A DNA stretch of 61,703 bases, counting the filler, from Dugesia japonica (lineage: Eukaryota), in the NCBI GenBank assembly GCA_001938525.1. It is 6 parts of 6 records of this genome, joined end to end, with 100 filler letters (N's around TTAATTAATTAA, not from the genome) between each part and the next. Parts side by side here need not be neighbours in the genome. Positions count along the whole stretch, not along the records: positions 29,216 to 40,199 come from MQRL01641063.1; 5 more parts are not named here. The stretch is one strand, 5' to 3'. This document shows positions 11,824-59,953 of the stretch, piece after piece; within the stretch, counting starts at the first letter, position 1; each line of letters starts with the position of its first letter. A program made the translations under genes and the position numbers. The notes under the pieces are model-generated. The model had not been told where the DNA came from, did no database searches, and worked only from the letters and a program-made list of their open reading frames with translations.

Positions 11824-14342
11824 CCCTACAGTGCATGATTTTTTTTGTTTTAAAAAAATATATAATTTCTAGTATAAATATTTATTCTAAATGGGGGGAA
11901 AATAAAAAATATATATTGCAACATTTACATTAAAACTATTCAAAAATACAGTTGATTAATATATGCATAAATATGCATTAAACATATATTTAATTTAACT
12001 TACAATTATAAACTAGAATTTAATTTTCATGAAAAATTTATAACAATTCTTGTCTTTGTTAAAACACAAAGCCGTTTTGCACTTTTCACATACGACAAAT
12101 GTTTGCGAATTACACTTTGGGTTTTTGCATCTCAATCGAGTGTCATTCCAAATAGGAAAATGATACACTCCGTCTAGTCGTACATCTTGAGGAGGTGGTA
12201 TAGTTGCATTGGGTTTCTTTCTTTTAATTTCAATTTTCTTCTGCAATGATGATGGTCGACCGCGCTTTGTTGAAGCCGGTTTGTTAATGGTACATAATGT
12301 ATTTGCCAATTCAATTCTGAAATCAGCTAATTTCATAACTGGCATATCTTTATTACATCTTCTCATAAGTAGCCATGCGTTTATAACAGTAATATCTAAA
12401 AGGTGGTAAAATAGGCGAATNTACCATTTTCTTGACCGTAGCTTGATTTTATATATTCCAATCAAGCTGTCCAGTAAATCAACACCACCCATATGACGGT
12501 TATATTGCTTGACTGCAGCGGGACATGAAACCTGAATTTTTTGTTTGAATTTCCTGTCATAACGTTGAACCGTGTGAATAGGATTTATTCCCACAAATGA
12601 TGACAAAAAAACCACCAATTTATTGTAATTCCAATAAACACTATTAATTTCTACTCCTTCAAAGTCTGTCAAAAATTCATTGGAAGTACCTCTTCATTTT
12701 TTTAGTTTCCGCTTCACTTGGAACTTTGCAGGAAGGAATTCTATTCCTCTTTACTGTTCCAAGAGAATGAATTGCGTTTTTTGCCAAATTGTTATAATCG
12801 ACATTGATGTGTAGTAATTATCAAAGTAAATTTTGTAATTGCAATGTCTAGGAATTTCTCTCGTCAATCGCATAACTATATTACTACTTGCCCCAAGATC
12901 TGCTTATTTTGGGAAACGTTTAGCTGGATCATTTTCTGTTCCAGTGTATATTTCGAATTTGTAACAGAATCCAGCATTTCCCGCGAGGACGAACAATTTA
13001 TATCCCCATTTATGTGGCTTTAGTGGCATGTATTGTTCCATGTGATGACGAGCCTTTGTAGAACATATTTGTTCGACAATAAACAAAATTTCTTCCATAG
13101 GAATTGACAAAAATTTGGCAGATAATGACTCTATAATTGGTCTCAATTTATGCAATTTATCATTTGCATTACTGAAATTGCAATTAAAATGTAAATTGGA
13201 CCGAATTCTTACGAAAGCATTTACGTTTAGTGTGTTTTGTACAATATCGATACCAACAATTCTATTCCAGCACAATCGTATATTAGGTACTGATGTTATT
13301 GACGTTATAATGCATATTCCCAGATATTTCATTCAAAAGGCTTTGTAATATTTTTTTGAATGCTAAAACGTATGCTTTCTTCTACAATTTTGTCCATTAG
13401 TCGATCATCAAAAAGTATTTGTTTGAAGTTTTATTTCTTCTGGTAAATCGGTATTGCCAGTAAATTTAGTTGATTTATCTGAAATTTCTTTCCGTTTCAA
13501 CAACAATTGCTTAGGTTTGCCATTTTTCGATGTATTAGACATTTTAGCAGTTTCTTCTTCAACTACGTTCTCTTTGGATATTTCAGTGTGAGGCACGGTA
13601 TATGTCAACTCAGAAATATTGTTTCGTTCAAAGTATTTTTCTAATAACTCTTTAGAAACNATAGTATTTTCTTCATCATCACTATCGAGACAAAATTCAT
13701 CATCGCTGTCTTCGGGTATGCTTTTAATCAAATCAAATAAGGCATCGCTATCCAAATGTTCTAAATTCACAATCTCTGTTCCATTTTTATAAATAAGAGG
13801 CATCTAAAATAATAAAAAAAATATCTAAAATTAAAAAAAATCATAAGAGAAATATATCCTACTATATTTTACTACGAAGTCAACGATATATGTACGTACA
13901 TCAAAATGCANNNNNNNNNNNNNNNNNNNNNNNNNNNNNNNNNNNNNNNNNNNNNNNNNNAATGATTCATATATAAGTCGACTATTATTCATCATTTAGG
14001 AGTAACAAATACATCAAAAATAAAAAACTAACATCATAACAGTAGTATAGGGTATACTGAAGGCCATAAAAAATACATATCACTTACCTTGTAATTGATA
14101 AACAAATTATGTCTCGGCAAAGTTGTCACATTTCACGAAACGTCCGCCATCCACCACACGTTTGACGAAATGACAAATACTGGGAGAATTTTTAGGTTAT
14201 ATGTTGTCTTTTGTATACCGTTATGTTGCTGGATGATTCATATTCGGACTGTCATGCATTTACGACACCAAAATGCTTTAAATACAAAGCTAGGTGTAAA
14301 AAAAGATGGTNATGCATATATGAATTACCATGCACTGTAGGG
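11824..14342 (-). mobile_element. Full-length piggyBac DNA transposon (2519 bp)
   Basis: 14-bp TIR CCCTACAGTGCATG at 11824-11837 and 14329-14342, with a TTAA target-site duplication on both sides. Confidence 0.95.
12013..13803 (-). pseudogene. piggyBac transposase, frameshifted
   Basis: YMPLKPHKWGYKLF, YFDNYYT, YNRHMGGVDLLD and a C-terminal Cys-rich domain. The first catalytic D reads V (FIVEQ). Confidence 0.93.
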
Positions 14343-22739: not shown

Positions 22740-24390
22740 TGGATGGAGATAGATATAACATAATGGTTCCGGTAAATACAGATACAATAACAGAACGGTT
22801 GTTGCCGAAAAATATTTGGAAGGGTGATGATTTGAAATTGTTTATAAAATAATGCTAATTATATTTTGGAACGAAAGGAATTACAAACCCGAAGGAACAA
22901 GGAAAACTGGTAATATGCTTGTTGGAGCCAAATTTATTCCACAAATATATGAATACTGAGGAAAAAGTATCGGGTTTCCAGGCGCGGTTGAGATTGGCCT
23001 TCCAAAAAGACAAAGATACCCTGGAAGATTTGCAGAAGTTAATTATATTTATACGAAGCAATTTAGAAGTCGATTCATTTATTAAAAAGGTAGAATCGAT
23101 GGTAGATGATATTTTTGCTCATAAAGAATTAACAAAAGAGGGTCTAGGGACGAAAATTTTGGTGAGCGCTTCAGGAAATGTTAAGTTACAGGAGGAAGTA
23201 ATACTGCGGAAATTAAGCACGGTGGGAGAAATTAAACAGACATTAATATTACTGGATAAAGTTGAGGAAAAACAAGAAAACATCAATGTAGTGAGAAATT
23301 ATTCAAATGTCGTAAGAAAAGGCTCACAGAAGCCGGTACAACTTCCAGGTAGAATACTGTAAGACAACAGCAAGGTAAAAGAGAGTATGGGATGTTGAAG
23401 TTGTCATAGACGGGGACATACTAGAGCAAAACAAGGGCGAAACAAGAGAATGTTGGACAAATCTCGGAGCAGGTCATTTGAGCAGAGATTGTGTGGTGAA
23501 AAGGAAAATGATATGTTACGGGTGTGAAGAACCTTGCAATATGAGACGGAATTGCGCGAAAGGGAAATGTTTTGAGTGTGACATAACGCGCCATAGAGCA
23601 ACAGAATGTCGAAGAAATTGGCGAACAGATCAGAGAGGGGGACACAAGGTACAATGGTATTCAGTAGTTAGTCTATGTTTGGAAAAGAACAAGAAAGATA
23701 TACGATTATGTCTGGATTTTCGGAGATTAAATACGGTTACAGAAAGACAGGCCTTTCCAATGCCTAATTTAAACTAAAGGTTGCACAAGCTGAATGGGAA
23801 TGTATTTTTCAGCTCCATCGATCTCAGCAATGCTTACTATCAGGTAGAGTTAGAAAAAGACTCACAAGAGAAAACAGCATTTCCGTCAAAAGAAGATCAA
23901 TATTGTTTCACACGAATGCCGTTCGGAATTGCAGCGGCACCATGAACGTTCCAAGAAATGATGTTGAGAGTAAATGAAAACTTAGATGGAGAAATGGTAT
24001 ACTCAGATAATATCCTAATATTTTCAAAGGACAAAAATCATCATTATGAGATTTGGGGTCAACCCGGAGAAATGTAAATTTTTAAAGTAAGAAATTAAAT
24101 TGTTGGGACACATCATCAGTGCAGAAGGAATACGAACAAACTCGGGGGAAAATTGAAGCCATTAAAACATTCGAAGGCCTAGTTATGTGAAGACAATGCG
24201 TAGTTTCTTGGTATATGCAATTATTACAGAAAATTTATTAGCGGGTATGCAGTTAAAACAAGGGCACTGGAAAAATTGTGCCATGGTCGGAGTAAAACCA
24301 AATTAGAATGGAACAAGGAGTTAAAAGACACATTCCAAAAATTGAAATCAGCATTGATATCAGACCAATCTTAGCATTTCCCGAATTACT
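22740..24390 (+). mobile_element. Ty3/gypsy gag-pol remnant with the protease region deleted
   Basis: Gag and degenerate CCHC knuckles, then RT motifs IRLCLDFRRLN, SSIDLSNAYYQ, RMPFGIAAAP and degenerate YSDNILIFS. Confidence 0.9.
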
Positions 24391-24479
24391 TTAAAAATCA
24401 AATACTTTAAAATTTAAATAAAAAAATACTTAGAAAAATATTTAAAAATAAATAAATAATCAATAAAAAAATAATTTTA

Positions 24480-25864
24480 AGCTTAAAAAAATAGCAGCTT
24501 CCGAGCAAAAATCTAAACTTAACTTAAATTATAATAAGATGTTTAAACATTATATTAAGAAAAATGATATATTAAGGATTTCTCTAACACCTGGTTCTAT
24601 TTCTAATTTAAATAAATCTGGAGACATTGTTTTCCAATCATTACAATCATTACAATATCCTTTAGATATTTGTAACGTTCGATTATATTATAAAATTGAA
24701 ATAGAACTTAGTACAGCTACTGATTATATAACTCTAGAAAATAATTTCTTTCCTAATTTATTTAGTAATATAAGATTGAAATTAGGTTCAACAGAAGTAG
24801 AATTAATTTTAAATCTAGGAGTTTATGCAACTATATTAAATTTTATTTTAATTAACGTTGATTATAAAAATGAATACGGAGAAATGGCTGGATGATTACC
24901 CGTTAATAGTAATAGAACTAACGATGTTACAAGAGAAGATATGAATACTAGTTATTATAAAAGAAAATTATTATAAAATGCTACAAAGAAATATGAAAAA
25001 TATTTTGATTTAAAATATTTATTCGGCTTTCTACAGATTTATGATAATGAATTATACATAATGTATTTATCGAATTAATATGTAATAAACAAGTGGAAGA
25101 TAAATTTCTTTTTTATGGAGTTGCTGTATTAATAGCAAAATTAAAGCTAATAATAATAGAATAATAATTTAAATAATAATAATAAATCTCCGTGGGAGAA
25201 AACTGGAGGAGATATTCAATCTTCTAAACTTACTTCATTATTATCATAGCCATTGACTTTTGAAAAATATCCTGGTGAAATACATTTATTTAGACATAAT
25301 TATACTGGACCAAATACAAGATTAGATATTCGATTAGATGAAAATAATTGTCCTTTACCAGGAGAAGAGTCAATAAATAAAGTTGATGCTGCAACATTAA
25401 AATATGCTTTGCATATAAATCAAAAGATTTAAGTGTTAAATTTATTTTAAGTATTAAATTTACATATTGCTGATGTAAATTTAATACATGATTTAAATAA
25501 TATAGGAAGTCCTTCATTTAAAGAAAAGATCCAAAGAGCTTAAGTTAAATTAGCTACGAAAGGTAAAATTTTTGTTGGAGAAGGATTAGAAAGACAGTAA
25601 AAATATAACTAATCAAAAGATTATTGAACAGGCTGCTATAGAAAGACTTTGATAACAACACTAAAATTATTGAGTCTCAAGAAGAACAATTAAATTGTGC
25701 AGCTGAATTACATCATGAATATAGAAAAACTAAAAGATTTTTAAAAGTACAAATACATAATAAAAATCACACATGGGGATGTGATATTGCTGATATGGCT
25801 AAAAATTCTACTGATGAAGAAAAATATCGTTATATTTTAGTTTGTATTGATTTATATACTAGAT
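24480..25864 (+). mobile_element. Second, internally deleted copy of the scaffold-A Polinton family (MCP - PLA2 - integrase N-terminus)
   Basis: Colinear with the reverse complement of 7468-5345: LNKSGDIVFQ, HNYTGPNTRLDIRLDENN, AAELHHEYRK, LVCIDLYTR. Deletion junction near 25165-25190. Confidence 0.92.
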
Positions 25865-26600: not shown

Positions 26601-27339
26601 ACTTAGATAATATTAAAAAGTTCTTTTATCGCGGAAAATAGCATAAAAAATACAATTAACGTTAATATTTTCTTTCTCAATAGTTTTTTAAATAACAGAA
26701 ACACGATTTGGAAATCATATATTGATTCATATATGGTTAGTAAGAGTCAAATTCATTTCATAGTGAATTTTAGGAATTTTCAAAATACATAACATTCTAA
26801 AAATTATTATTTTCAATTTTTAATGATAATATAACTAACAATCAGAAGTGCTCCAGCCAAAACCAAATACTTATTTGTAGAATTCATATTTTGTCGAACT
26901 AAACTTTGGATTAATTATAAATAACATTTAATTATTTATTTACAAGTGACAATACAGTTTTCATGATCCATATTAATTTCCTGAAATTTAGAAGTATACC
27001 ATGTTTTATCAATGGTTCCACTAAGAAATAAATTATTTTCGTCAGAGAATGAATCATTTTTCTGTGATGTTTTACCTGCAAATTCAGAATCCTCAAAGAA
27101 AGTAAAAATCTAAAAATAATTTGACTTTATTCACAACAAAATGATCATGGTAAGCTACATTGCTTAAATTCAACTTGATCACCAAGCTAAATCAAAGTAT
27201 TTATTTTAAGTTAAACTTGATCAATGAAATTCTTAAATCGCAATTTCTTAAATTACTTTAAAATATTTGAAATTACAACTTTTATCTTTTGTATAAATAA
27301 CTTAAATTCAGTATATAAAACATTTCAGTCTACAATAAA

Positions 27340-28680
27340 TTTCAGTCAAGCGTTTTATCAAGCTAAACTATCAGAGAAGTCAAGATTGGTTACAGCTTTT
27401 AGTACCAAACAAGGTAAGTTTTGTTTCAATTGTATGCCTTTTGGATTAGCAACAGCACTGGGAACATTTCAGAAATTGATTCATGAACTGTTAGAAGGCC
27501 TTCTTTTTAACGATCTACTGGTTTATATTGATGATATTATGATTTATAGCTCTAGTAAAAAGAAACACGACGATATATTAAAGGAAGGTTTTTGACGCAT
27601 AGTGCTGGTTTGAAGGTAAATCCAGAGAAATGTAAATTTCATCAACGAGAGTTAATCTTTTTGAGACATACAGTAAATGAAGATGTGGTAAGAACAAGTA
27701 AAAAGAAAATTGAAGAAATTTGACAAGCAGAACCTCCTGTTTGCATTTTTCACCTGCGTTTTTTCTTGGGACTAATAAACTATTATCAAAGACTTATTCA
27801 CGATATACAGAAATTGCAATATCATTATATGCTGTCATTTCAGGTAAAGATAAGGTTTTATAATGCATTGATTTAACAAAGTTTTCAAAATATAAAGGAT
27901 ATATTATGTGATGCACAGATATTAGACTTTCCTAGAAAGAATCGAGTTTTTGTGCCTGATACAGATACTTATTTTTGCGCCATTGGAGCAGGACTCAGTC
28001 AAAGTAGAGAAGACAGAAATTAGTCAGTTATTGCATATGAATCTAATTATTTATAGGCTCATGAGCTGGGCAACTGAAAAAAGTTGTTAGCTTTATACAA
28101 ATTTATTTTACATTTTAAACAATATTTATATGGGAAACAGTTTACTGCACGCATTGATCATAAAGACTTAGTTTTTATGAATACTACAAAGAATCCCACC
28201 AGTTCCTAATTTCAGATATGGTTGGCAAATTTATCTAAATCCAATTTTGAGTTGAAGTATAGAAAAGGCGATGCTAATGGAATGTCAAGGATTTCTCACA
28301 TCACATGTGCGCAGTGTCAGACAAAACACATTAATACAAAGATAGAAAATTACAAGACGAAATATATCAATATGATGCAGGAGGATATTAGTCGGCTCGA
28401 GAGAATACAACATGAACAGAAACTAGATTCAGTTATTAATGTGTTCAAGGAGTTTTTAACAGGAAGAGGGATGAGTTGTAAGAAGTTTCAGAAAAGAATA
28501 TTCTTTATTCTACTAGAAACAGTCTTAATATAGTGAACTGCTGGTTCAAAGAAAATATGATAAAAATCTTATTTTAATACAAGAAGAATTTTTACAGGAG
28601 TTCTTGACAAATAAGCATTCAGAATTATATCATTTCTGAAGCAAGGAGATTATGTTTCATTGTATTAAGTTAGAGAAATG
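27340..28680 (+). pseudogene. Ty3/gypsy pol remnant (RT, RNase H)
   Basis: TAFST..FNCMPFGL..VYIDDIMIYS; DTD..AIGAGLSQ; HFKQYLYGKQFTARIDHK. Confidence 0.9.
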
Positions 28681-29286: not shown

Positions 29287-30799
29287 ACAATTTTCATTGT
29301 TATTATTTAAATAAATTTGAAAGTTAGATAATAAAAACGATTTCTAGTCATATTTAATACACACACAGTTATGAAAAATAGGGATCCCCAACTGGTAAGT
29401 TGCAATTAGAAGATTGATCACCTTTGTAGAAAGCAACCGCAACAGTTGTCTAATGACTATAACTGAAGAATTAATTGGGTATTACTGGATATGTTATGCG
29501 CAAATAAGAAAGGAAGACTACGCGAAGCCCTAAGTACAATAACAAGTATGTTAACGGGAGACCACGTAGGAAAATAGAGGAAGCATATTAAAGGAAGCCT
29601 GCGTATGGGAGGGAAAACCTCGGAAAAAATTAAAGGAAGTCCACGCAAGGAAGGAAGACCACGTGAAGGCCTAAGCACGTTAACCAGTACGTTAAAGGTA
29701 GACCAAGTCGAGAAATAAGGAAGCATAATTAAGGAAGCCTGATTAGAGGAAGCATTAAAGGAAGAGAAGCCGGAAGCGTTCACCTGCACGAAAAGGGTAC
29801 TCCAAATGGGGTCGCCCATCCCTCAGAAAACTCTCGGTACTCCCCATAAATTTAAGAAACGTGTGCACTGTTACCACAGCATTTTAAAAGGAAGAAAAGC
29901 AAGGAAGCCAGAAAAGTTCGCCTATACTACAGAAAAATGGGTACTCCCACCTTTAGGAAGAGATAACCTGGCATTAATTAGGAAGAAATTAAAGAAGCAT
30001 TACAGAAAGATTAAAGGAAGACTTAATTAAGGAAAATTAGAAGGAAGATTAAAGGAAAATTTAAGTAGGGAAAGTTAAATAGGAAAAATTGAGGAAGATG
30101 GTGATGGGGCCTTGATGACAAGTCTGGAGCAGCATGATAGTAAAGTAAGCTTAAAATCAGGAAGAGGAGTGATTGTCTCCTAAGTAAAGGCAATTAGAAG
30201 TAAATTTTCATTCTAGAAAGTTAAGATACAAGTATTACAAAACCATTACCGAAATACAGTAGGCAACACACAAGCCGGACTCTGACAAAATAGATTCCTA
30301 CTCGGAAAATAAAAACCACTTACCAGGTCTGACACTTCCGGATTAACCACCCCAAGCTCAATTCTAAAAGAAAACCAACTTACTCGGCAAAGGTCATCAA
30401 GGAGGCCAAAGAAATCGTCACTCTATTTGGACCAGGAAGAGAACATTTGCTCGCGCAAGAAACCAGAATTCGACAAACCAGTATCCAAAAATAAAACGTT
30501 AAAACCATCAGCTCAAACAGTAGCCCAAGTGATAAAGAAAATCAAATAATCCAGAAGCGAACCCACAGTAATAAACCCACCAATAAAAACCGACTAAGCG
30601 AACTAAGTTATATCTCGGAAGAGACGGAGATAATAAGCAGTAACCAAAGAAGCACCGAAATTTTAACGTTAAGAGACGATAACCAAAGAAACGAAACCAC
30701 CCCATCTACAACTGAAAACCCGAAAATAGAACCAACACAGCAAAGGACAAAAACATGACAACTAAAACCGAAAACCATTGACCGGAGTGGAAAAAAAAT

Positions 30800-31650
30800 T
30801 TCGATGGCGAATATTTTAGCGGAATACCGGAAAAGTTGGATGAATTTATCCAAAATTACAAAATTTATGCCAAATCCTGTGGCTGGGACGAGGAAGCAAA
30901 AAGAAAACGATTACCGGCTTACTTAACAGGAGTAGCCAAATAATTTGGGACCATACTAAGGTTATGAAAGCCATTCCCAATAAATGGGAATTAGTAGTGA
31001 AAATACTAACTGAAAATTTCCAAAATTTAAAGTTGACTGGCGAAGATTTTGAACAATTTACCAATCGAAAACAACAACGAGGGGAAACTCCACAAACTTA
31101 TATGATGGAACTCAAGAAGCGCGGAAAACTGGCCTTAGGAGATAAACTGGAAGACAGTCAAGTGTTAGCTATATTTTTAAATGGATTACGCGACGAACAC
31201 GCCAAACTAATAGTAAAGTTGAGTAAGCCAGTGACTCTACAGGACGTTCTTGCCACATTGCGAATTGTAGCAGATAGACCGTCAGAACGAATATTCAAAG
31301 TAGAAGGACAGACAGAGAAATATAATCTAACACTCAATCAATGATGAAAATCCTGACCCCAGGGCAGGAACGGAATAACAGGAATGATAGACCTAACTAT
31401 CCCCTAGGAGATGGTGGAGAATATAATGCACCGCGGAACAGTTGGCTAAATAACCGGGATATACAATGTAATTCCTGTGGAAGAAAGGGGCATATAGCCC
31501 GAGATTGTACAAGTAGAGGCAATAATAATAACAACAATCGATGTTGTACTTATTGCAAGAGAACCAACCACAATGTAGAAATGTGTTTTCTGAAAAATCC
31601 AACTGTCTGTTATAAGTGTAATAGAAGAGGGAATATGGCGAAAGAATGTC
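30800..31650 (+). pseudogene. Gag capsid domain and three zinc knuckles
   Basis: FSGIPEKLDEFIQNY..GWDEEAK..LPAYLTG; RKQQRGETPQTY; FLNGL; CNSCGRKGHIARDC, CTYCKRTNHNVEMC, CYKCNRRGNMAKEC. Confidence 0.9.
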
Positions 31651-34249
31651 CAAGCGGAAATCAAACAAATTATAATCGCAATCCAAATACAAATCTGGAT
31701 AATTTAATGCAGGAAAATGAGAGATTAAGTCAACGAGCAAACCAAAACAAGGAACAAGTCAACTTAGTGCATCAGAATACTTTTGACAACGTTTACTACA
31801 AAGTTCAACAAGAAAATGATTGGCTCAAATGGCAAAATCAAGATTTTCAGGTACAGCAGGAGAGACTAGCAAAAAGGAACTTGCTAAACAAACCACACAA
31901 GAATCAATGTAATATGGTCAGAACACATAGACAGATTTATATCCAACATGACGAAACAACGGAGGTTACCGAAATGGAGGATACTCGGAAACGAATACTG
32001 ATTGCATCACCCAAATTTGAGTGAACCAATGAAATCATCTTTAAAACAATAGAAACATCAACGTAAAACACCGGAAAAAGGCGAGTGACGAATCAGTTAC
32101 TTCGGTTATACCAACACCCACAAGTACATGCAAAAGTAAAAGCCAACTGGCAGAAAATAATATCGGATTACATCACCGAGCTTTATAAAGAAACTAAGTT
32201 AGAAGATTACGAATTCGAAATTCAATATGTATGGCATAATAACCCGAATGGCATTCCGAAACGATTAAAGCTATCGCTAAAGGGATTGACAGTTCGACAC
32301 TTGAAAGAAGTCCTTAACGAAATTAAATGGGGCGAGGTAAACGGTATCAAAGATATGAAGGTAAAACCGTTTCTCGAATTACCACCGTTTAATGATAAAC
32401 AACAATGGAATTAAAAGTGGAATAGGCATAGATTACAAATAGGTAATATAGGAATCAATATTCTTCCAGATGATAAGAATCTAATTTATTAGGGGGCACG
32501 ACCTCATGAAACAACAGTAATCAAATTGATAAATTGAGGTTTGGTATTCAGACCACAAATAGTAAATCAAGAAATAGAAACTGATGAGTTATATCATAAT
32601 CTCGAGGAAACATTCCTAAAGGAAATAGTTTCCACCAAGGCTCAAAACTACTTACGAAAAAGTTTTGAAAAAGTGATAGTGATGGACTATCCGAAGATGG
32701 GACAAAATGAAGCCTCACGATTATCATTAGCTCGAATTGATGAGATACTAGTAGCCGCCCAAAAACTCCATTATACAATTAAGAGGAATGTATACCTAAA
32801 GTTAACTAATCGATTGGTAGAGTTATTGGAAGTATAAAACTGGTCACTAATTTTGAAAGTGACTGGCTACCAGTACATTATGATTGGGTCATATCCAACA
32901 TTGGATTACCAGATTACCAAGTATGGTTGTATAAGCCAGAAGGAAATATGAAACTGACACTCGCGGGATTAATGATAGAAGATCTGGAATCGGCGCTTAA
33001 TCAAGCAGGCTATCCATTCATAACTGATAAATACGGATGTACTCCAAGTGCTATAGTGAATTTTAATGCCAAAAATAGCCATCTATATAATTTTTGGGTA
33101 AAACCAAGTAAAGAAATTGAAATTGTAATATTGAACAAACACCCAGGTATCGACTATGACATATGGGTAACGAAAACCGGAAGATCGGCCCTAGAAATCA
33201 TGGGAGAAATGGAATATCTATATAAACAAGAAGTAGAACCTATTAAAATAAAGATACTTTCCACAGTTTTGAGAAAGAAAGACAAACTGACAAAGGAGAA
33301 AAGGAAGCAGTTATTGATGATGCGTAACGATTTTCTCAAACAACGATTAGAGAGAAGAGAAGGTAAATGCAACATAATATGGATGCAGCAAATGCCGGCG
33401 AGAGAAGTAGTAGCGATGCGTAAAGTGGAGGAAATGGTTAACCAAGTACAGATAGAGAAGGAAAAGTTACCCCGAGAGACGTATTAGATGATAATGAATA
33501 GAATCTACGACATATATGATGGGTTAGAAATATCTGAAGAAATCGAGGATCAATGGCTCATGATTAGACAGAAGTATGCCGAAGAAATATTGGCAACTAG
33601 CAAATTCAGGACTATAAATTATATTTGAATATAGGTAATTTGAATATAGTGACTAAGTATAGCCGATTAAAGCCGCAAGGAATAACCATGATGGATTTGA
33701 TGGATACAGTTACCGATAAGTGACAAGAACATGGATTAAACATGGTACCTCTATTCATAAACGGCAAATTGGTCGAGACAGATGACGAGGACAAACACAT
33801 ATTCCAATGCCATGCAAAGCCCGGAGAAATATGGGAGTTAGATGTAGAGAATTAGCCGCGGACAGCTCAATCATCAGATCTTGAGGAACGAATGGAAGAG
33901 ATAACAGAATTATACGTATCCGAGGTATTGGCGGGTATAAAAGAACAAGTAAAAGAAAATCAGAAAATACAGAATATTGATAACCTACCAATAATTACCA
34001 CAAAATCAGTTGAATTTCCGGTAGGGACACCGACAATACGTGATATTCGGATGAACTACACGAAACCAATAACTGAGGAATCCGCCATGTTCCACGCTAT
34101 CAACGATCTACTAAGAGTAACACGGGAAACTCGACCTGTTTCCTGCGGGATTTGGCAACCTATGGTCAACTCAGCTTGTGGGCTCGAGCACAATGGTGGA
34201 AAGAGAAAACCTATATGAAGAGGAAGTACAAAATACATCCACTATATCT

Positions 34250-34430
34250 GACTATTCCATCAGAGTCAGCCTCCTCAGCAAAGGTGGAAGCATAAAGAAG
34301 GTGGATATGATAACCTTGGAGGGATTAACTATCCAACATGTTAAAAAACCAATCAAGAAATGGTTATGGCCAAAATCGCTCAAGTCATATAAAATGCAGG
34401 CGGGAGCAACAATAATCATATTAGCCAAGA
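34250..34430 (+). pseudogene. Ubiquitin-like domain (internally shortened) in the polyprotein
   Basis: TIQHVKKPIK resembles ubiquitin TIENVKAKIQ; KSLKSYKMQAGATIIILAK resembles RTLSDYNIQKESTLHLVLR. Confidence 0.5.
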
Positions 34431-35570
34431 AAGAGTACCACATCTTTCTACATGATATTAAACCAGGGGAGATCACAGAAATTAAACTAACGCCGCGAAA
34501 AATAACAATAGATATACCGATTCCAATACCTGATACAGATCAACTCATATTCAACATGATGAGCCTATATATACAGAAAATATTACCGGTGGAGAATGAA
34601 CGCCTCATAATTACTTATGGGGAAAACATAGTCAAAGTAAACATGGTTAGGAATAACGAGTTCGATGCCACAGATCCAGCATCAAATTAGGAGGAGGAGG
34701 AAGAAGAAGCCGCAGAAGACACAGTCAATTCCAGACTTTTACCATTTAAACAAGAATTTGTTGGTCCTTTCAGTTATCCTCAAGCAGAGCGTATATCGAA
34801 GATAATTTCTGATTTTTGCTTTTTCTGGAAAGGATATCTAGGGCAACATTTTGGAAGGCATTAAATTTACTGGTGAACTTGGCGAAGTATACCGAAATAG
34901 CAAGGGAAGAATGTGACAAATGGGAATCAGTGCTCAAGCAGTATATTAGTGCAGTGAAGACAAATGCCAAGGGAGACGATTTCCAGGTCACTATAGAATA
35001 TCAGACACCAAACAAAAAACTCAGAAAGGAACCGAAATTGGCTGTAATGCATATACCCCATTTCAACAGTACATCAGCTGTGGAATTGCAGGAAATCATA
35101 GAATCGTTGGATATAGCTGACCAGCAAAACGGCTAAAAATCACAAACGTTCCGAGATTCCCGATAAAGTTCGAAGGTAAACAACATTTAATGGACGTAGG
35201 ATTGAGACCAGGTCAAAATACATTTCTCCAAATACAGAAACCGGAAGATTACACGCCAGTCCCAGTAAAGTCCATGAAAGAAGTATTAAAACAACAAAAG
35301 GATTTATATGAACAAAAAATCATCAGTTATAAACTGTTTGAAGAAGTCGACGATAGAACAATGGAGATAAATATTGAGTTATGGGAAGACAGTAAATCAT
35401 GGGAAAGTTTGGCACGGGCAATAATGAAAATACTCCTGACTCTGGAAGAAAACTTGGAACTATTAAGAGATAACAAAGTCATAAAACTAATCCTGAAATT
35501 GAATCAGCCACGAGCTATAAGCCGTATGCCAAAGGACGCAATGGATGCAATATTATATTAAGCAGTTCGA

Positions 35571-35855
35571 ATGATAACTATCAAAGCAGTCACCATAATA
35601 ATCAAATTTCCAGATGAAAGCGAAATTCATTGCCAGGTCCAAATGAATGACCCATGGTCTAAGTTACGAAGGAGGATTATAAACTTTATGAACCAACAAC
35701 GTAACCTTGGTAAGGCGGGAACCAGAGTACAATCACTATTCCAGGAAGACAATATAGTACTCTATTACAACCAAGTAATAGAACCAGACCAAATGAGGTT
35801 GCCAGTGAAATATATGGGGGTATGGCCAGGTACTCAATTAAAAATTTACGTAACT
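35571..35855 (+). pseudogene. SUMO-like beta-grasp domain in the polyprotein
   Basis: IIIKFPDESEIHCQVQMNDPWSKL resembles SUMO1 [40 protein letters not shown] resembles TPKELGMEEEDVIEVY. No terminal GG. Confidence 0.6.
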
Positions 35856-37055
35856 GCAAAGGATGAAGAGAGACGGAGACCACGGTTCTCAGAGGAAAAA
35901 TGGAAACAGGAAGCTAGAGGAGTAGTAGAATATTATATAAAAGAAATACATCCACTAGTATTCGCAAGAGCCAAACTCCCTAGACAAGAACAAAGTAAAC
36001 AACGAGTGGAAATGGTAGCACCTCTGACCAACACACCAATCAAAGATGAAAAGCCAGAGGACAATTTACCAAAATTATTTGAATTGTTAGTGGGGGATAA
36101 GTTAATAAAGCCAGAAATAATACATCAATCCAATATAGTCTTACAACAAGATCTGCAGTTAAGATACCAGTATATAATACGATAAAGCACTTACGAGACA
36201 AGTTACCATATAAACCACCATACAAACTCCTAGATGAAGAGGGAATAGTGGAAGATACCACCCCAATTGGGCTAATGAAAATAGATTTAGTCAAACCCAA
36301 CACGTTATGAATTTTTTCAGAACTAGGAGGTACCCTTACTCGGAAAGAAGCGGACCCCTATAAGGCCGCAGATAAGACAAGACCAATAATGGGAGAAATC
36401 TCAGGTATGTTAAAAGCATATAAACATCGTACACAATTAGCGGCTATCCAAAACTTAAGACCTACCATAGATCAGTCGGGAAGTACGAAAACTTCTCGAG
36501 AAACAAAAGAAACCCCTAAAACAAGCCAAGATTGTGAGCGTGAAATATTCGGATATCCATCAGCAGATGAATTAGCAGAAGATAAAAATGAATTGCCAAT
36601 CACAAGATATTGACCTCCAACTAGGAAACGTGAAGAAATAAAAACCAAAGAGCCAACACGACGTAAAAAATTAATATCCTAGCAAGGTAGACTTTGACAA
36701 GGAAGATGTATTAGAAGAACAACCATTATCGCCAATATTGAGTAGAATAGCAAAAGAATTGCCATCCTCGGTATTGGATGACTTGATGGATACAAACCAC
36801 CCNNNNNAAATGGAAAATCCTATAGAATTAGAAGAAGAAGAAGTGCCACCAAAACCCTCACGCACCAGTGTGGATGCAGAAACAATTACTGAACCTCGAA
36901 ATAGAGGCAGACCAAGAACAAAACCTCCAGGAAACCCAGAGGAGGAAGAAGCATTGAAACAAAAACGATTAACAGCATCAGTAAACCACCAAACTAAGCT
37001 ATTAGCAACGATATCACAGGAAAGATACCATGAGAGTTCAGCGGATGATGACATG

Positions 37056-37457
37056 CCAACCGAAGTAGTAATACGGCAATTATTGCTAATGCTTTATCCA
37101 GAACTTAAGATATGGATTGGTAAATTCCAACTATCNNNNNNNNNNNNNNNNNNNNCAAAGGAAATAGAAGCAGCCATTAAGAAATTTCCCGCTACTAAAG
37201 GTACTAGTCATGGCACAAGAGACAGCTTAGAAGGAATAATGGATGAGTTATTACAGGATCAGCCATCGAAAGGAAGAATAGTGGTATCTATAGCCCATTT
37301 AATTAATCAAACACACCTATCAATCGCTAGAAGCAAACCATCAAAAAACTTCATTCTTAGTAAATTAACAATAGTGGATCTAATGCAGAACAAAATCGTG
37401 CCGTTGATAAAGCAGCATGGAGGATGGAAAAAGTTTATTGAGGCCATATGCGTTTAG
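37056..37457 (+). pseudogene. Bcl-2-like domain in the polyprotein
   Basis: BH1-like IMDELLQDQPSKGRIVVSIAHL (motif core ~37266) and BH2-like LIKQHGGWKKF (~37404-37436) at plausible spacing. Confidence 0.75.
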
Positions 37458-37499
37458 CCCCAATCATTTCATGAAAATGCAACTAGAGTAATCAGAATT

Positions 37500-38820
37500 G
37501 TTCCGGATCAAGCAGCAGACGGATCATGTAATACAGGTACCTCAACGCTAACTTACAAAGTAGACCATCAGGACTGCAAGTTAGCTCATCTAAAAGAGGC
37601 AATGTTCAATGAATACCAAGGACAACGAGCTATAGCACCTATTGATCAAACCCCAAAAAGAGGGTAATGTAAAGGATAGGATAGATAATTTCAAGGAAAC
37701 GATAAGATCAGGTCCGAGATCATACGATCAGCAATGTCACACAACTCTCACGGTGCTAATGTCCTCAGAACAGGATGAGACCATCTGATTAATCAAAGGA
37801 AATTATATGTCTAAATGTGGACAAATAGTGTATAAAACAAACTATAAAGGAATATTCGTATCAGAACATCGGATAAAAACCGCACAAGCCGCAGTAATGT
37901 CACAAGATATCAAACTACATCTATTTGCTAATAATCAAATGGACAATTTATTCCACCAGATGCAGGATACCATCGAACGAATGTACCACGACCTCATACA
38001 AAATGATTGCACATTAAACAAAGAAATACTGAAGACAAAGTTAGCAATGGCAGTTANAAATCCAGATAGTGTCACCCCGTTATTTACTCTGGAAAAAGGA
38101 CAATTTGGTCGCGTAGTAGGAGAAGTAATGTACCTAAATCAATGCAAGTCCGTAGATGCAGAGTTTTCGTCTAATCCCAAATATTGCTATAATGAAATAG
38201 AAATTATCCATAAATATGAGAAGCGTTACGTACAACCTATTATTCGAATAATATCACCACTGGGTTATAAGCCAAATATCATAAATTGCTCTAATGTATT
38301 TGGACCACAATATATAATGACAGATGGTTCATGGATAAGATTCCCACAACGAATGGCAGTAGGAGTCGAACCACGAAAATTCTCAATGCTACGGTTAAAT
38401 GGAGGTATGCAATTCACTCCAATTGATATAAATAAAGGAGGAATCTATAGCAAGGAAGATCTAGAGAAAGCTATGGAATATATGCTGTTTCCAGTTTGAA
38501 GGATGCAAATTCTATCGAATATAGTGCAATTAACCAGTGGAACCAACATAGTCGGACGTGTAAATGACGATGCACTCTTGTCAGCAGATCATTTCCAGAA
38601 AGCCACGGAAAACGTCATGCGGAAAATGTGGGTACGATTCATAATATTTGGGCAGGCAATGACAGGATTGCTGGGAGTAATGTTAATAATTTCGGTAGCA
38701 CGAGTAGTGATTACCCAATTGTTTTCCTGTTTCGACATATACAAAAGAGAAAAGAAAGTGAATTGGAAAATAGTAACCGGAATATTTCCATTCTTAGCCA
38801 AAACCATGGTGCTTAATAGT
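37500..38820 (+). pseudogene. Chuvirus-G/herpes-gB-like (class III) envelope glycoprotein, central and C-terminal part
   Basis: KCGQIVYKTNY..IFV; a long helix ending NDCTLNKEILKTKLAMA.NP; GQFGRVVGEVMYLNQCKSV; CYNEI; GIYSKEDL; transmembrane segment FIIFGQAMTGLLGVMLIISVARVVI. Confidence 0.8.
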
Positions 38821-39419
38821 CACTCTAAAGACATTTACAGGGTAAAACGATTTATTCGGAAACACGGACAAATAAGAGGATCGAACAAGGAAGTCATAAT
38901 GCAACTTTGGTTGTTGTGTGAAGAAATGAGCAATGCTAAAAAGAAAATATCATATTTCAGCCAATTCAAAGAAAGTTTTAAGAACAAAAGCGAAAGTAGT
39001 AGCAGCAGTGATGACGATATAGGAGAAAGCAGTGGAGCGCCACATGTACCCAGTTATAAAACCACCATGGAATACGATACAGAGTTTAAAAGACAACAAT
39101 ATGAAAAAATCAGTAAACAACGACTAAGAAATGCATTAAAATTTGCAGGAAATGAAAATACACCAGCACCAGCACAAATGTACTATAATGCCTATCCACA
39201 ACATGATTGGCAAACCATGAATCCATAACCACAACAGGTATGGGCACCAGGTCCCATGTACAACACCCCTTATATGAGTCCACCACAAGCTCCCAATATG
39301 GCATTATTAACAGAAAATAATCTATCAACTATTGACAGAAGAACTACGGACCAAAATTTGCGTTCTCCAATTAACCACATCACCGAAGATGATAAATTAG
39401 AAACCCAAACCGTATGTAT

Positions 39420-39770
39420 GATGATTTCTCAGAAAGCGAAACTATTACAAAAAAGGATAAAAANAGACGGAAGATGGGTAATAGCCATTATCGATTCCGG
39501 AGCAAGTACAACGTTAGTCCACAAAAGAATATTAGAAGATTATCGACAACTCCGATTTACCATTATTAAAGGAGTTATTATCACGGCCTCTGGAGAAAAA
39601 ATATCACCTGTTGGGGAAGCAATATGTTCAATAGAAAGTGACGGAATCCGTCAATGGCATAAATTACAAATAATGAATGAACTAACTTTTGACTGCTTAT
39701 TGGGATTGGATCTCTTACCACGTCTATGCCCAGAAGGTATATTAGATCTGAAGAAACTAACAATACGGGA
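39420..39770 (+). pseudogene. Retropepsin aspartic protease 1
   Basis: AIIDSGASTTLV, IITASG, CLLGLDLL. Confidence 0.9.
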
Positions 39771-40064
39771 AAATCACGATCGGGAATATGCGCCTGTAGG
39801 TTATCAGAAAACTCGAATAATAACCAAACAAAAACGACCTCAGCAATAGAATCAACCAACACCCAACCGACAGCCGCGACTCTCATCAGGCAGAGGTGAG
39901 CAAAATGATTCCAATCAAGATCGTCGGAAAACTACCAACATATCCACCATGAAAAGAGACGATTGGATAAGGTTTCAGGAACGGGAACCAAAATGGAAAA
40001 ACAAAAAAACAACATAGCATAAATTGTAACACTTCAGATGTGGTATGCACAAGCCTCAGCGGCG

Positions 40065-40160
40065 GGCCTGTATTAACAATTATGGTTAAAATCAACGGTA
40101 GATCTACAACGGTTTTATTAGACACGGACAACAATCTCGTTATTATCAATAGAAGAAATC
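40065..40160 (+). pseudogene. Start of a second, degenerate retropepsin
   Basis: Manual translation PVLTIMVKINGRSTTVLLDTDNNLVII (DTG changed to DTD). Confidence 0.55.
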
Positions 40161-40199
40161 GCGATAACGGAATATAAAACATATTGCCCACCAATACCA

Positions 40200-40299
40200 N
40201 NNNNNNNNNNNNNNNNNNNNNNNNNNNNNNNNNNNNNNNNNNNTTAATTAATTAANNNNNNNNNNNNNNNNNNNNNNNNNNNNNNNNNNNNNNNNNNNN
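40200..40299. other. Artificial scaffold-joining spacer
   Basis: 44 N + TTAATTAATTAA + 44 N. Confidence 0.97.
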
Positions 40300-45764: not shown

Positions 45765-46742
45765 TTTCAATTTTTAAGTCTGTCAACTTTTGCGACGTCT
45801 TCTTTGCAACATGTAGTCAGGCATTATCATGCAAGTGGATGATTTCTTTCCTTTTGACAAATGAAGACTGTTTAATGCATAATTCTTTGTGCATTAATTA
45901 TTTTTCAGAACAGTATTTGTCTGAGTTATTAGTTTGACCTACTTCTAACAAAGAAAAATGTATGACTCCAGCTATAGACCACCAAACTGTCAGCATTGTC
46001 TTTTTTGGGTGTAAATATGGTTTAAGACAGTGTAAAGGAGGTTGATCGACATCTAACCATTGTGCAGAACGTCTATGATTGTGATTCATAACCAATTTTT
46101 CATCACAAGTGACAATGCGATTTAAAAAAGATTCCGATTTATTTCGATCCAGCAGCATTTGGCAAATTTTCAATTTTTGCAATTTTTGGGAGTAATTCAA
46201 TAAATGAGGAACCCATTGGTCCATCTTTCTTTCTTTCCAATGCCTTTCAAATGACGGGAAATTGTTTGACGACTAACGTCTAACGTTTTACTAAGTTGTC
46301 GTACTGATTGACTAAAGTTTAGTTCCACTTCACGTTTTACATCGTCATTGCTAATGACAACCTTGGGGCGCCCCCTCTCCATATTGACTTGGGTTAAATC
46401 ACCCTCTTGAAAATTTTCGAACCATCTCCAAAGTGTTCTTTCATTAGCTGAACCCTCTCCAAATACAAAGTTAATGTATCGGACAGCTTCTGTTGGATTA
46501 TGCTTTAATTTCTATTCATATAAAAATAATGTTCGCATTTATGTATTTTTTAGCTTGTGTTCCATGCAGTCTAAAAATAATTTAAATAAATAGATATTTT
46601 AAACAAATATTATATTATGATAATCAAACGTTCCACCTTCAAAATTATACATAAATAAGTTCTAAATCTTAAATATTACATAAATATATTAGTTTAAAAA
46701 ACGAGTTTTAAAATCTGACATTTCATATGTGACAACCTAATA
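45765..46742 (-). mobile_element. 3'-truncated mariner element (transposase ATG at 46565)
   Basis: TA + TIR TTAGGTTGTCACATATGAAATGTCAGATTT (46711-46742); GRP, WVPHLL, IVTCDEK, HPKKTML.VWW and LHDNA motifs. Confidence 0.93.
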
Positions 46743-49840: not shown

Positions 49841-49963
49841 TTTTAATGAAATTTAATAAATGAGTGTGTATATATACATATTTTTTAGAAATAAAATTAA
49901 TTGATTCATTTAAACAAAGAAAAATAGTATTATAAACAATGTATTAAATTACATCTATATAAA

Positions 49964-50535
49964 ATGGAGTTGAGAAATGATGCTGTTTATCAAATTGTCG
50001 GTCCAAGTGGTAGTGGAAAAACCTTGTTCGTATGCAAGTTACTAAAATCTAACTTATTTAAATCAAAATTTAACAAAATATATTTGCACAGAGGTGCAGA
50101 TGAAAAGCATGAGTTATCACAATCAGAACTTTGTAACATTAAAATGAAAATTATAAAGGGATTTGATTCTAATTGGAGCAAGAGATTGAAGCCGGGTGAT
50201 GTTATCGTAGTTGATGATCTGTATCAAGAGGGTAATAAAGAAAAAGACTTAAATAATTTATTTACAAAAATAAGCAGACATTGTATTGTGACTGTGATAT
50301 TTATTACTCAAAACTTATTCCATCAAGGAGTAAGTCATAGGACACGTAATTTAAATGTACAATACCTGGTTCTATTTAAAAATCCAAGAGACCAAACAGT
50401 TGTGTAATTTTTAGCAACAATAAATCTACATAGTTAATTTTTCTCAACTTTACACAACAATGTCCAGACGAATTGAGGGTGAGAACCAATATTTTCAATC
50501 TTGATATTGTTACTGTGTATAAACAAACTAAGTAA
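49964..50535 (+). pseudogene. Polinton packaging ATPase
   Basis: Walker A GPSGSGKT, Walker B VIVVDD, LFTKISRH..VIFITQNLF, LNVQYLVLFKNPRD. 3' part deleted. Confidence 0.93.
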
Positions 50536-50785
50536 TTATTATATTGTAAAATGACGAAACCTAAAAAAAATATAGTTGATCAGATCAAAATTATTCCTAA
50601 AATGAAGAAAGATAAACGATCAAAAAAGAATATTGTAAAAAAAAGAGTGGAAAGAGGAAACAAAGTAAACAGTTGAACATTTTTAAGAAACTTTCAAAAT
50701 TCCATGGTAAGAAAATCAAGAACATAAACGGAAAATGGACATCATTATAAACAAATATGGGTAAGTTATATTATTAAAGAATAAA

Positions 50786-51066
50786 ATGAAAATTCAACTA
50801 AGTAATTCATTTTTTACATCATTAATTAAATCGTCAAAATCAGCGAGAATGCAAATTTGATATCATTTCCAACCTTTGTTTTGGATGATTTAATTAAAAT
50901 TATTATAAATATTGTTCGCGAAAATGTAAATGTGAGCAATGATAGAAAGGAAGTATTGAAAAAAAATAAAAGAACGCTATTAACACTTGTAAATACAAAA
51001 AATAAGAAATTGATAAGGCGAATAATACGAGATAATCAAGGAGAAGTTTTCATCAAATTCATGTAA
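50786..51066 (+). pseudogene. Small basic conserved Polinton protein
   Basis: IIINIVRENVNVS..KEVLKKNKRTLLTL pattern, located between the ATPase and integrase. Confidence 0.5.
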
Positions 51067-51099
51067 TGGGCAAGCTGAAGCAGATTTGGACGGATGCAG

Positions 51100-51760
51100 A
51101 AAGTCCCGCAGGTTTTTTTTGCGTAGATAAATTAATAAAAGCAGCACAAAAAACAAAAACAAAGACAAAAACGTGGTTATCGGGTCAACTAGAGTAAAGT
51201 TTGAACAAACCAATGTTGAAAATATTTCCAACAAGAGCATATAATACGTTTGGTATTGATGATATATGGAAAATAGATTTGATGGAGATGATCCCATATT
51301 CAAAAATAAATAAAGGATACAAATATATTTTAACATTTATTGATGTATTCAGTCAATTTGCAAGAGCTATTCCAGTCAAATCAAAATCGGCTAATGATAT
51401 GGAAACGGCAATTAAATCAATGTTTAAAGATGGACATCCAGATAATTTACAAACAGACTTGGGTAAGGAATTTTACAACTCTAAAGTCAAAAGTCTTTTA
51501 TCAAATCTATCCATAAACCATTGTACCGTATTCTCTCTCTCAGTATAAAGCAGCACATGCAGAATGATTTAATCGCACACTAAGAGATGCTTTAAAAAAA
51601 TACTTTGTGTATACTGGCAATAAAATCTGGATAAATGTATTGTCAAAATTAATTCATATTTATAATCATTCAAGCCATAAATGTTTAAATGGAGCAAGAC
51701 CGGTTGATTTAAGTTCAAACAATGAACTCAAATTACGGTTATCGCGCGATCAAATCAAAT
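51100..51760 (+). pseudogene. Polinton rve integrase
   Basis: GIDDIWKIDL..NKGYKYILTFIDVFS..LQTDLGKEFYN..KAAHAE*FNRTL. Confidence 0.92.
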
Positions 51761-59436: not shown

Positions 59437-59953
59437 ATTATTATCTAATGAAAATCTGTGATAAATTCCAGCAGGAATTATTAACAAATCTCCTGGTGAA
59501 ACCTGAATTCGAATCCATCCATCAGATATATTGCGAACATCGAGATATGCTGATCCATCAATTATAAATCTAGCTTGGTCATCTTCATGCAAATGTTCAT
59601 CGAATAATACTTTTGTCTTCAAAATATTCGAAAAATAAAGTTTTTAATTAAAGTAGTACCAGTTTTTCGAAGTCAGAAGTCTCGTATTTTTTTAAGTCGA
59701 TTAAATCCTCATTAATGAATCCTCTTTCGCTTTTAAGTTTCTGATAAAAACTCCCATCTTCTTCATAAGATTCTAAATTAATCTAATTGTATTAATTTAA
59801 ATTGAAATTTTCATTCATAATAAATATTCAGACTCTGAAATATTCAACTCCTGTAGATTCTTTCATTAGATCTAATGCTTGATAACTTGAAAACATTTCG
59901 GCTTCTGATATTTCATAGTTAGAATTATCTTTAAGATTCCAAAATTTAACCAT
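59437..59953 (-). CDS. ADI1: Acireductone dioxygenase (ARD/cupin); three exons seen, last exon not identified
   Basis: Exons 59953-59834, 59782-59660 and 59616-59437 join in frame across GT-AG introns of 51 and 43 bp. Motifs: [46 protein letters not shown]. Confidence 0.88.

Follow-up and report, generated by a model that had tools for sequence, protein, structure and literature searches.

Schmidtea mediterranea and Dugesia (Girardia) tigrina carry Burro (GYPSM1) elements, which are gypsy elements of giant size (PMC6431247, citing Jurka 2007 and Grohme 2018). In the account of Arkhipova and Yushenova (2019, PMC6431247), planarian Burro encodes Gag, CCHC knuckles, a SUMO-like domain, BCL2, env and protease in one ORF, with ORFs of 4,873 and 5,140 amino acids; the accessory domains may also occupy a separate ORF, and Dugesia japonica is reported to have decayed Burro fragments that contain stops and frameshifts. 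A pro-survival role of Burro1 has been reported (Lee 2026, as cited in PMC13465017). Errantiviruses with the order GAG-ENV-POL and an HSV/gB-type ENV occur in Platyhelminthes, Nematoda and Bryozoa (Chary and Hayashi 2026, PMC13524379); the main text of that paper leaves Burro, Bcl and apoptosis unmentioned and mentions protease once, and its Smed_errantivirus_1 to 6, of 14.5–18 kb, may be Burro elements. In mosquitoes, BEL/Pao elements have captured a chuvirus glycoprotein (Dezordi 2020, PMC7642597).

The window analysed here, a stretch of 61,703 nucleotides of Dugesia japonica DNA, very probably contains a decayed copy, truncated by a gap, of a Burro-type (GAG-ENV-POL) retrotransposon that is high in copy number and likely Ty3/gypsy; its intact ancestor likely encoded one giant polyprotein. 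The gypsy assignment is drawn from relatives, because RT, integrase and LTRs lie past the gap. Gag and CCHC knuckles come first, then one weak ubiquitin-like domain, a Bcl-2-like domain and a class III Env; a protease follows, and a second one begins before the gap (Table 1).

Table 1. Features of the element, in positions of the window
Feature	Position	Strand	Evidence or remark
A/G-rich leader carrying short, degenerate repeats; either LTR or 5' leader	29320..30085	+	deepest bins; imperfect 33–71 nt repeats
Gag capsid region, with one stop and one frameshift	30755..31341	+	tblastn/phmmer to P0010 Gag, iE 1e-6; Retrotrans_gag E 0.15
Three CCHC-type zinc knuckles, the third without His	31467..31649	+	zf-CCHC E 1.1e-6; translation
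Five diverged orphan modules, about 100 aa each, spaced about 690 nt	32133..35133	+	shuffles and leave-one-out HMM
Probable, weak ubiquitin/SUMO-like domain	35571..35870	+	UCH_UBL1 E 0.013; Atlas; hhalign
Bcl-2-like domain with BH1- and BH2-like motifs	37050..37454	+	Pfam, PDB, Atlas, HMM
Chuvirus-G/herpes-gB-type class III fusion glycoprotein, C-terminal two-thirds	37509..38865	+	Monjiviricetes_fusion E 7.7e-34
Retropepsin-type aspartic protease 1, DSG at 39493	39442..39738	+	gag-asp_proteas E 6e-5; own HMM iE 5e-19
Second protease start, broken and ended by the gap	40073..40159	+	own HMM positions 5–33, iE 0.01; Pfam E 0.07
Scaffold gap (run of N)	40200..40299		RT, RNase H, integrase and 3' LTR not seen

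Extent, coding content and decay

Coding sequence runs on the plus strand from the start of Gag at 30755 to the scaffold gap at 40200. A frame path based on codon usage, with a training set made up of the Gag, Bcl-2, Env and protease frames only, contains zero non-coding gaps on this strand between 30769 and 40199. Over the held-out stretch 32025–37130 the path scores 81, versus 0 on the minus strand and 0 in 30 of 30 shuffles. The coding sequence is interrupted by about 26 stops and nine or more frameshifts, counts that are approximate because the path mis-calls short stretches (30769–30940, around 34860–35120 and 39993–40199). The breaks are evenly distributed, the interiors of Gag and Env included. 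GC content and A-skew are even along the element, with all parts on one strand.

From the end of the last zinc knuckle (31649) to the protease DSG codon (39493) there are 7.8 kb, coding without a gap, much as the earlier note on this DNA had it (about 8 kb of extra coding); Gag to protease measures about 2,900 codons. That note also described series of ORFs sharing a frame across single stops. This holds for 35190/35571 and 37807/38503/39256, while the members of 31341/32085/32541 share a frame but are separated by two and three stops; the frameshifts, at least nine, were absent from its account. Its proposal of one ancestral polyprotein is likely right, given the unbroken frame path and relatives that hold parts in frame. 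The ancestral order would likely be Gag, accessory domains, Bcl-2-like domain, Env and proteases, probably followed, by analogy, by RT, RNase H and integrase.

The element is a high-copy repeat throughout, with 30 of 30 bins covered by 22,581 contigs in run X1 and 14,596 in run X3, most of them 90–95% alike. Depth is greatest in the leader bins (154k and 101k, versus 1k–71k elsewhere) and falls 8- to 19-fold at 34765–35127 and at 39847–40199; contigs bridge 39809–40119, in the second-protease region. In 40 of some 1,100 rows of differences, two in-frame stops are sites where almost every other copy departs from this one, and indels of other copies are located near three inferred frameshifts. 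In a quarter of each of two oligo-dT libraries, 123 and 3 matching reads are present, all partial. By sequence comparison, the public ORFs closest to the Env are long but only 30–39% identical, and no intact copy of the family was seen. The Dugesia japonica copy itself is dead: stops and frameshifts are numerous, and a deletion has taken the Env signal together with most of the first Env domain.

At the 5' side, no second copy of the leader of at least 30 nt is found among the 20 repeat families displayed for the window. A stretch starting with TGG near 30100 was dropped as a primer-binding site, having no preceding CA end and no matching tRNA. RT fragments at 23655–24407 and 27320–28296 were rejected as the Pol of the element; they are 26–41% identical to relatives and lie upstream, beyond a gap. 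To the right of the gap at 40200, the RT of relatives gives zero tblastn matches.

The flanks have a GC content of 20–30%, and the introns of a flanking ARD gene measure, by eye, about 43 and 51 nt; such GC content and intron size fit planarians. The best matches to an exon of this gene are at 66%, one of them from an insect and the other an unnamed protein. The whole window is rich in other mobile-element debris.

Envelope and accessory domains

The Env is broken by one frameshift and one stop. In addition to the main match, there is a second Monjiviricetes_fusion match (E 1.1e-8), and the Env piece on its own matches Glycoprotein_B in Pfam (E 0.007). A transmembrane helix is located at 38662–38712, and protease 1 follows in the same frame across one further stop. 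About 200 amino-terminal residues are missing, so the signal segment and the fusion-loop domain are not complete in this copy; the missing part has no match anywhere in the window. The fusogen that the earlier note placed between Gag and protease is present as a class III Env, but lacks this amino-terminal part.

When representatives were searched with the Env region using HMMER, 709 proteins were obtained; because of this, the blank result of word-indexed homologue searches with the same region is a limit of sensitivity. A model of the Env of relative P0009, which is 39% identical, has a pLDDT of 83; its best PDB match is herpes gB (E 4e-13) and its best viral matches are chuvirus G (E 3e-44). 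The fold predicted from this relative is gB-like class III. In a tree of 126 sequences, the Env of the element falls, with support 0.95, into a group with 16 Envs that are mostly polyprotein-borne, apart from stand-alone glycoproteins of 650–700 amino acids. Of 13 relatives that include the Env start, 11 have a hydrophobic segment there.

A Bcl-2-like domain directly precedes env, as judged from several lines of sequence evidence, each modest and all in agreement. It matches Pfam Bcl-2 with E 0.0014, under the curated cut-off; all 53 PDB sequence matches are Bcl-xL (53/53, best E 0.15); Atlas gives 0.92, with 22 of 30 matches; and an HMM built from P0004 and P0009 recovers it with an iE of 1e-5. 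A run of N is located inside the domain, at 37136–37155, and a hydrophobicity scan reveals no carboxy-terminal membrane anchor. A poor single-sequence model of the piece (pLDDT 44) gave no Bcl-2 protein in a fold search and is uninformative.

For the probable ubiquitin-like domain, the Atlas rows for ubiquitin and Rad60-SLD score 0.87–0.89, with a non-Ubl family as the best, and hhalign aligns 72 columns with a domain of four relatives (E 0.0014, probability 18%); there is no PDB sequence match.

The cores of the five orphan modules are located at 32133, 32846, about 33590, about 34200 and 34900. Together they occupy about 3 kb of the insert between Gag and protease, and take up most of the space where Burro1 accessory domains might sit. 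When four hand-picked copies are compared, four of the six pairs beat 1000 of 1000 shuffles, and the fifth copy is recovered by a leave-one-out HMM (iE 4e-5). The module has no match in 190 fetched proteins and none that is convincing in the PDB or Pfam. Judged by eye, a beta-grasp fold looks possible. Identity with the domain at 35571–35870, or with the ubiquitin-like domain of relatives, is unsupported (hhalign probability below 1%, and shuffles). Because no closest ORF matches the repeats at 32.1–35.1 kb, their in-frame status is judged from codon statistics and copy depth.

Compared with the domain order of the earlier note, Gag, the Bcl-2-like domain, the class III glycoprotein, the protease and the beginning of another one stand, while its several Ubl/SUMO domains reduce to a single weak one. 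Likewise, of its host-manipulation cassette the Bcl-2-like domain remains, but about 3 kb are orphan repeat and not a recognisable host gene set.

Relatives, alternative readings and a possible mechanism

Among relatives in public ORFs, Env, protease, RT, RNase H and integrase are contained in one ORF in P0003, P0005, P0019, P0042, P0153 and P0155, and P0008 reaches RNase H. Gag or a knuckle precedes Env in P0006, P0010, P0011 and P0042. A Bcl-2-like domain is located immediately 5' of Env, in frame, in P0004, P0009 and P0017; in the last of these the order is Ubl-like, Bcl-2-like, Env, as in the Dugesia japonica copy. The relatives carry the Pfam families gag-asp_proteas, RVT_1, RT_RNaseH and Integrase_H2C2, and none of the BEL-type families is found at E 0.01 among the 14 proteins scanned. 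Their protease domains are repeated, with the catalytic motifs intact, in 8 of 14, at two to seven per ORF. Scans of sequence collections found none of the relatives' loci.

That the element belongs to a separate GAG-ENV-POL lineage, working like Burro and possibly residing in an animal other than a planarian, is unlikely. Such a lineage would be in keeping with the POL tree of PMC13524379, in which GAG-ENV-POL elements are not monophyletic, and with the Pfam result for BIR, MATH and ankyrin. These domains have no match at E 1 in 18 plus 13 frame pieces, though single-sequence scans of a decayed copy cannot exclude them; Smc and midasin have no Pfam match either. When the Env is compared by eye with Smed_errantivirus_1 (group C1a; supplement of PMC13524379), however, two blocks agree, the first in 15 of 33 residues and the second in 12 of 17; the rows shown there for bryozoans (9) and nematodes (9) lack both, so the blocks match the Schmidtea group. 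SUMO-like, BCL2, env is moreover the Burro order of PMC6431247, and the GC content of the flanks and the size of the ARD introns, given above, fit planarians as well.

It is quite improbable that intact members of the family are divided into multiple ORFs (Gag, accessory ORFs and Env-Pol, say) that frameshifting or splicing joins, with some of the breaks native. The frame path has no non-coding gap, the breaks are evenly spread and those within Gag and Env are necessarily lesions, and in relatives a single ORF holds Gag-Env-PR, another Ubl-Bcl-2-Env and another Env-Pol. Several observations do speak for multiple ORFs: no intact copy was seen, the five-copy repeat has no in-frame counterpart among the 190 fetched proteins, copy depth drops 8- to 19-fold at the two places given above, and Burro accessory domains can be in a separate ORF (PMC6431247). 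Independent insertions piled up on each other (an ordinary gypsy element, a chuvirus glycoprotein fragment and retrocopies of host Bcl-2 and ubiquitin) are largely refuted and highly improbable: animal genomes often contain fragments of chuvirus glycoproteins (PMC7642597) and debris of other mobile elements fills the window, but the parts share one strand and an even GC content and A-skew, 30 of 30 bins are high-copy, the Env clusters with polyprotein-borne Envs and not with stand-alone ones, and Bcl-2 and Env adjoin in frame in three relatives.

In a Burro-type element with a single polyprotein, the hydrophobic segment at the Env start would be an internal signal that threads the ectodomain alone into the ER, and the transmembrane helix of Env would bring the chain back to the cytosol, so that Gag, the accessory domains and Pol would remain cytosolic. 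The parts would next be freed by host signal peptidase and by proteases of the element itself, and the Bcl-2-like domain may favour survival of the element-producing cell. The anti-apoptotic, enveloped or infectious, and proteolytic-release roles suggested in the earlier note might apply to the element; the Dugesia japonica copy, being broken and having a shortened Env, is incapable of them.

Comparison with described elements

The mosquito BEL/Pao elements (PMC7642597) are likewise LTR retrotransposons bearing a chuvirus-like glycoprotein, but belong to another superfamily; in the Dugesia japonica copy the retropepsin is of gypsy type and Env precedes Pol. With the GAG-ENV-POL errantiviruses, as described in PMC13524379, the element shares the ORF order, the Env between Gag and Pol and its gB-type class III, as well as an ectodomain with a signal or membrane segment on one side and a transmembrane helix on the other; the present copy is not intact.

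The kinship with Burro, which the earlier note had raised with the reservation that parts might be known, is borne out by the same order in PMC6431247, BCL2, env and the SUMO-like domain included. Gag followed by two to three CCHC knuckles is present, as in Burro; also shared is an in-frame env between BCL2 and protease, matching mononegavirus fusion glycoproteins. A Ubi2/SUMO-like domain before the BCL2-like one is probable but weak in our copy, and a very long ORF is likely for its ancestor. Burro1 contains BIR/RING (B-IAP), MATH and ankyrin domains, where the Dugesia japonica copy has the five-copy orphan repeat instead. The dUTPase, RT and LTRs of Burro are not visible in this gap-ended copy. 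PMC6431247 ties the Burro env to gypsy Env (class I relatives), whereas the fold found here is class III. The two consecutive proteases are not mentioned in the Burro section of that paper. More generally, the five-copy repeat and two to seven proteases per ORF were not found in the Burro and GAG-ENV-POL literature examined, although figures of earlier Burro papers may show them.

A tentative reading, and one we hold to be rather doubtful, is that Burro forms the long end of a single-ORF Gag-Env-Pol family growing accordion-like by module duplication. It would range from compact Gag-Env-PR (P0010, P0011) to nearly 5,000 amino acids, with up to seven proteases, all keeping D-T/S-G and some located after integrase, and with the five-fold orphan repeat in the Dugesia japonica copy; the extra proteases might each have their own cleavage sites, or tandem pairs might be single-chain enzymes. 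If undescribed, the repeated proteases and the five-copy module would make it possible to test how a membrane-spanning polyprotein of 5,000 residues is processed by the retroelement that encodes it. The layout as such is not new: the in-frame envelope, Bcl-2 and SUMO-like domains were published in 2019 (PMC6431247) and the gB-type class in 2026 (PMC13524379). To these, the Dugesia japonica copy, which matters little as found, adds one dead member of a further Burro-like family.

Coding stretch, domains and repeated module

The element, at 29.3–40.2 kb between two N gaps, has 35–40% GC and a strong A-skew from about 30 kb onward, while its flanks have 20–30% GC. It is very probably a dead copy of the Burro type (giant planarian gypsy elements), whose ancestor would have encoded a single polyprotein that spanned the membrane and that signal peptidase and the element's proteases cleaved. 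Successive plus-strand ORFs lead from Gag to the gap. A frame path based on codon usage, for which the frames of Gag, Bcl-2, Env and protease served as training set, assigns positions 30769–40199 to coding sequence uninterruptedly. With each of three parameter sets it places 9 frameshifts and 26 stops there, counts that are approximate because three short stretches are mis-called. The held-out region scores 81, the minus strand 0 and the shuffles 0 in 30 of 30. The frames assigned in the earlier note were correct; its first series (31341/32085/32541), described as crossing single stops, spans two and three, and the frameshifts went unmentioned.

Pfam was run on 18 ORFs, giving zf-CCHC (1e-6), Monjiviricetes_fusion (7.7e-34 and 1.1e-8), gag-asp_proteas (6e-5) and weak matches to Retrotrans_gag, UCH_UBL1 and Bcl-2, and then on 13 trimmed pieces, giving Bcl-2 (0.0014), UCH_UBL1 (0.013) and the second protease start (0.07). 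The ubiquitin-like call is weak. PDB sequence matches of the Bcl-2-like piece are to Bcl-xL in 53 of 53 cases (best E 0.15), Atlas returns 0.92 and 22 of 30 matches with a recognition value under threshold, and an HMM built from two relatives recovers the domain (iE 1e-5); a single-sequence model was of too poor quality to inform.

The bulk of the insert is not the ubiquitin-like domain, but an orphan module of about 100 amino acids, present in five diverged copies spaced about 690 nt apart. Four copies were chosen by eye and tested pairwise; four of the six pairs scored above all 1000 shuffles, the other two did not. The fifth, from a leave-one-out HMM, is located at the expected spacing (iE 4e-5). 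The module has no match among 190 fetched proteins and no convincing match in the PDB.

Features of the window, with strand where assigned
Position	Strand	Feature
32.1–35.1 kb	+	Five-copy orphan module
32025–37130	+	Region held out from frame-path training
34765–35127; 39847–40199		Depth 8- to 19-fold below neighbouring bins; either carried by few copies or more diverged
37457–37510		Env deletion junction
1316–7498	-	Decayed ORFs, presumably Polinton/Maverick parts (capsid, protease, ATPase, integrase; by eye); second copy, inverted, 81–91% alike
24475–25864; 49928–51548; 57113–58356		As preceding line
12013–13803; 45898–46511	-	Remnants of probable piggyBac-like and mariner-like transposases (by eye)
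22859–24407; 27221–28296		Two unrelated gypsy Gag/RT fragments (RT by tblastn)
~59437–59955	-	Acireductone dioxygenase host gene; closest relatives 66% identical; very short introns, ~43 and 51 nt (by eye)
9692; 18595; 29116; 40200; 52484		100-base N spacers containing a 12-base palindrome; assembly marks, not biology

The glycoprotein and the relatives

The Env-PR frame served as query for a phmmer search of 1.84 billion representatives, in which 709 proteins reached E 0.001; among the best 150 of these, the top matches are long ORFs, 29–39% identical and mostly from ENA contigs. For the Env tree (FastTree, midpoint root), 126 of 153 sequences were used, the 27 left out having fewer than 250 residues covered. 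The window's Env clusters with 16 sequences (support 0.95), 15 of which are long or polyprotein ORFs, separate from stand-alone glycoproteins. The Env of relative P0009, modelled from an 88-sequence alignment (pLDDT 83), has herpesvirus gB as its top PDB matches (E 4e-13) and chuvirus G as its top viral matches (E 3e-44), and PDB profile matches are to gB in 33 of 34 cases. This predicted model and the profile matches make Env a class III glycoprotein.

A hydrophobic segment is found at the start of Env in 11 of the 13 relatives that include it, the other two being under the threshold used, which suggests an internal signal. PMC13524379 describes Env ectodomains flanked by such segments, with the fusion loops in domain I. 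In the ancestor, the segment would direct the chain across the membrane, the Env transmembrane helix would bring Pol back to the cytosol, cleavage by signal peptidase and the element's proteases would follow, and the element may have had a pro-survival role. Both this segment and the roughly 200 residues that follow are missing from the window's Env: the relatives' match begins at ~37509, and an HMM finds the missing part nowhere in the window. The absent part includes most of domain I; this copy's Env could not fuse membranes. At the deletion junction, one contig from each of the sequencing runs X1 and X3 begins matching only at 37510, after 106 and ~30 unmatched letters, modest support because both also run off at 37773.

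Fourteen of the listed proteins and five cluster members were scanned with Pfam. Env-PR-RT-RH-IN is contained in a single ORF in six relatives (P0003, P0005, P0019, P0042, P0153, P0155), and in P0008 one ORF extends from Env through PR-RT as far as RNase H. Gag or a knuckle precedes Env in P0006, P0010, P0011 and P0042. With small HMMs, a Bcl-2-like domain is located immediately upstream of Env in P0004, P0009 and P0017, preceded in P0017 by a ubiquitin-like domain. The two consecutive proteases of the earlier note are a family trait, since 8 of 14 scanned proteins (P0002, P0003, P0004, P0006, P0007, P0011, P0153, P0155), or 6 of 11 clusters extending past Env, contain at least two (2 to 7). 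P0155 has seven, each with D-T-G and two C-terminal to integrase, plus C2H2 and ankyrin matches.

In P0003, P0005, P0019, P0153 and P0155, in-frame tails of at least 400 amino acids with at least two hydrophobic segments each follow integrase, as if a second membrane protein were encoded there. P0010, P0011/P0157 and P0042 are compact (Gag or knuckle, Env, protease), with little or no accessory region. P0005 is catalogued under a Flavobacteriaceae MAG and probably comes from a contaminating animal contig.

Copy number and alternative readings

Contigs of X1 (22,581 records) and X3 (14,596) cover all 30 bins of the element, most being 90–95% alike; the accessory region therefore belongs to a high-copy repeat rather than being inserted locally. 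No contig spans the whole stretch. At two in-frame stops nearly all other copies differ from the window copy (among 40 of ~1,100 rows listed). In the quarter covered of each of two oligo-dT libraries, 123 and 3 reads match, all of them partially, and thus give no sign of expression.

That the element belongs to a lineage of its own, or that its host is not a planarian, is unlikely; RT and LTRs lie beyond the gap at 40200, and this reading concerns the label, overlapping the Burro-type one. Slightly less likely is that the repeat region, for which no intact counterpart was found, natively consisted of several ORFs. Nested independent insertions are very improbable in view of the composition, the high copy number of all bins, the Bcl-2-like domain adjoining Env in relatives and the grouping with polyprotein-borne Envs.

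Comparison with described elements

A literature search, with Grohme 2018 and Lee 2026 outside its scope, found no description of the repeated proteases or the five-copy module; that both are undescribed and general is rather doubtful. The passages covered from PMC13238120, PMC11410931 and PMC8532177 contain no further domain detail. According to PMC13465017, citing Lee 2026, the Burro1 IAP region is anti-apoptotic.

PMC13524379 describes gB-type Env in GAG-ENV-POL elements of flatworms, nematodes and bryozoans and lists six such elements from Schmidtea. Smed_errantivirus_1 shares two Env blocks with the window (matches at 15/33 and 12/17 residues, by eye), and both are absent from the 18 bryozoan and nematode rows listed; we infer that the Smed_errantivirus entries are Burro elements. 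The layout, surprising as it is, is already in print: in PMC6431247 the Burro/GYPSM1 ORFs, of 4,873 and 5,140 amino acids, contain Gag, CCHC knuckles, a Ubi2/SUMO-like domain and BCL2, with an env matching mononegavirus glycoproteins in frame between BCL2 and PR. Decayed Burro copies are reported there from Dugesia japonica, and the elements are proposed to be proviruses interfering with apoptosis and ubiquitination.
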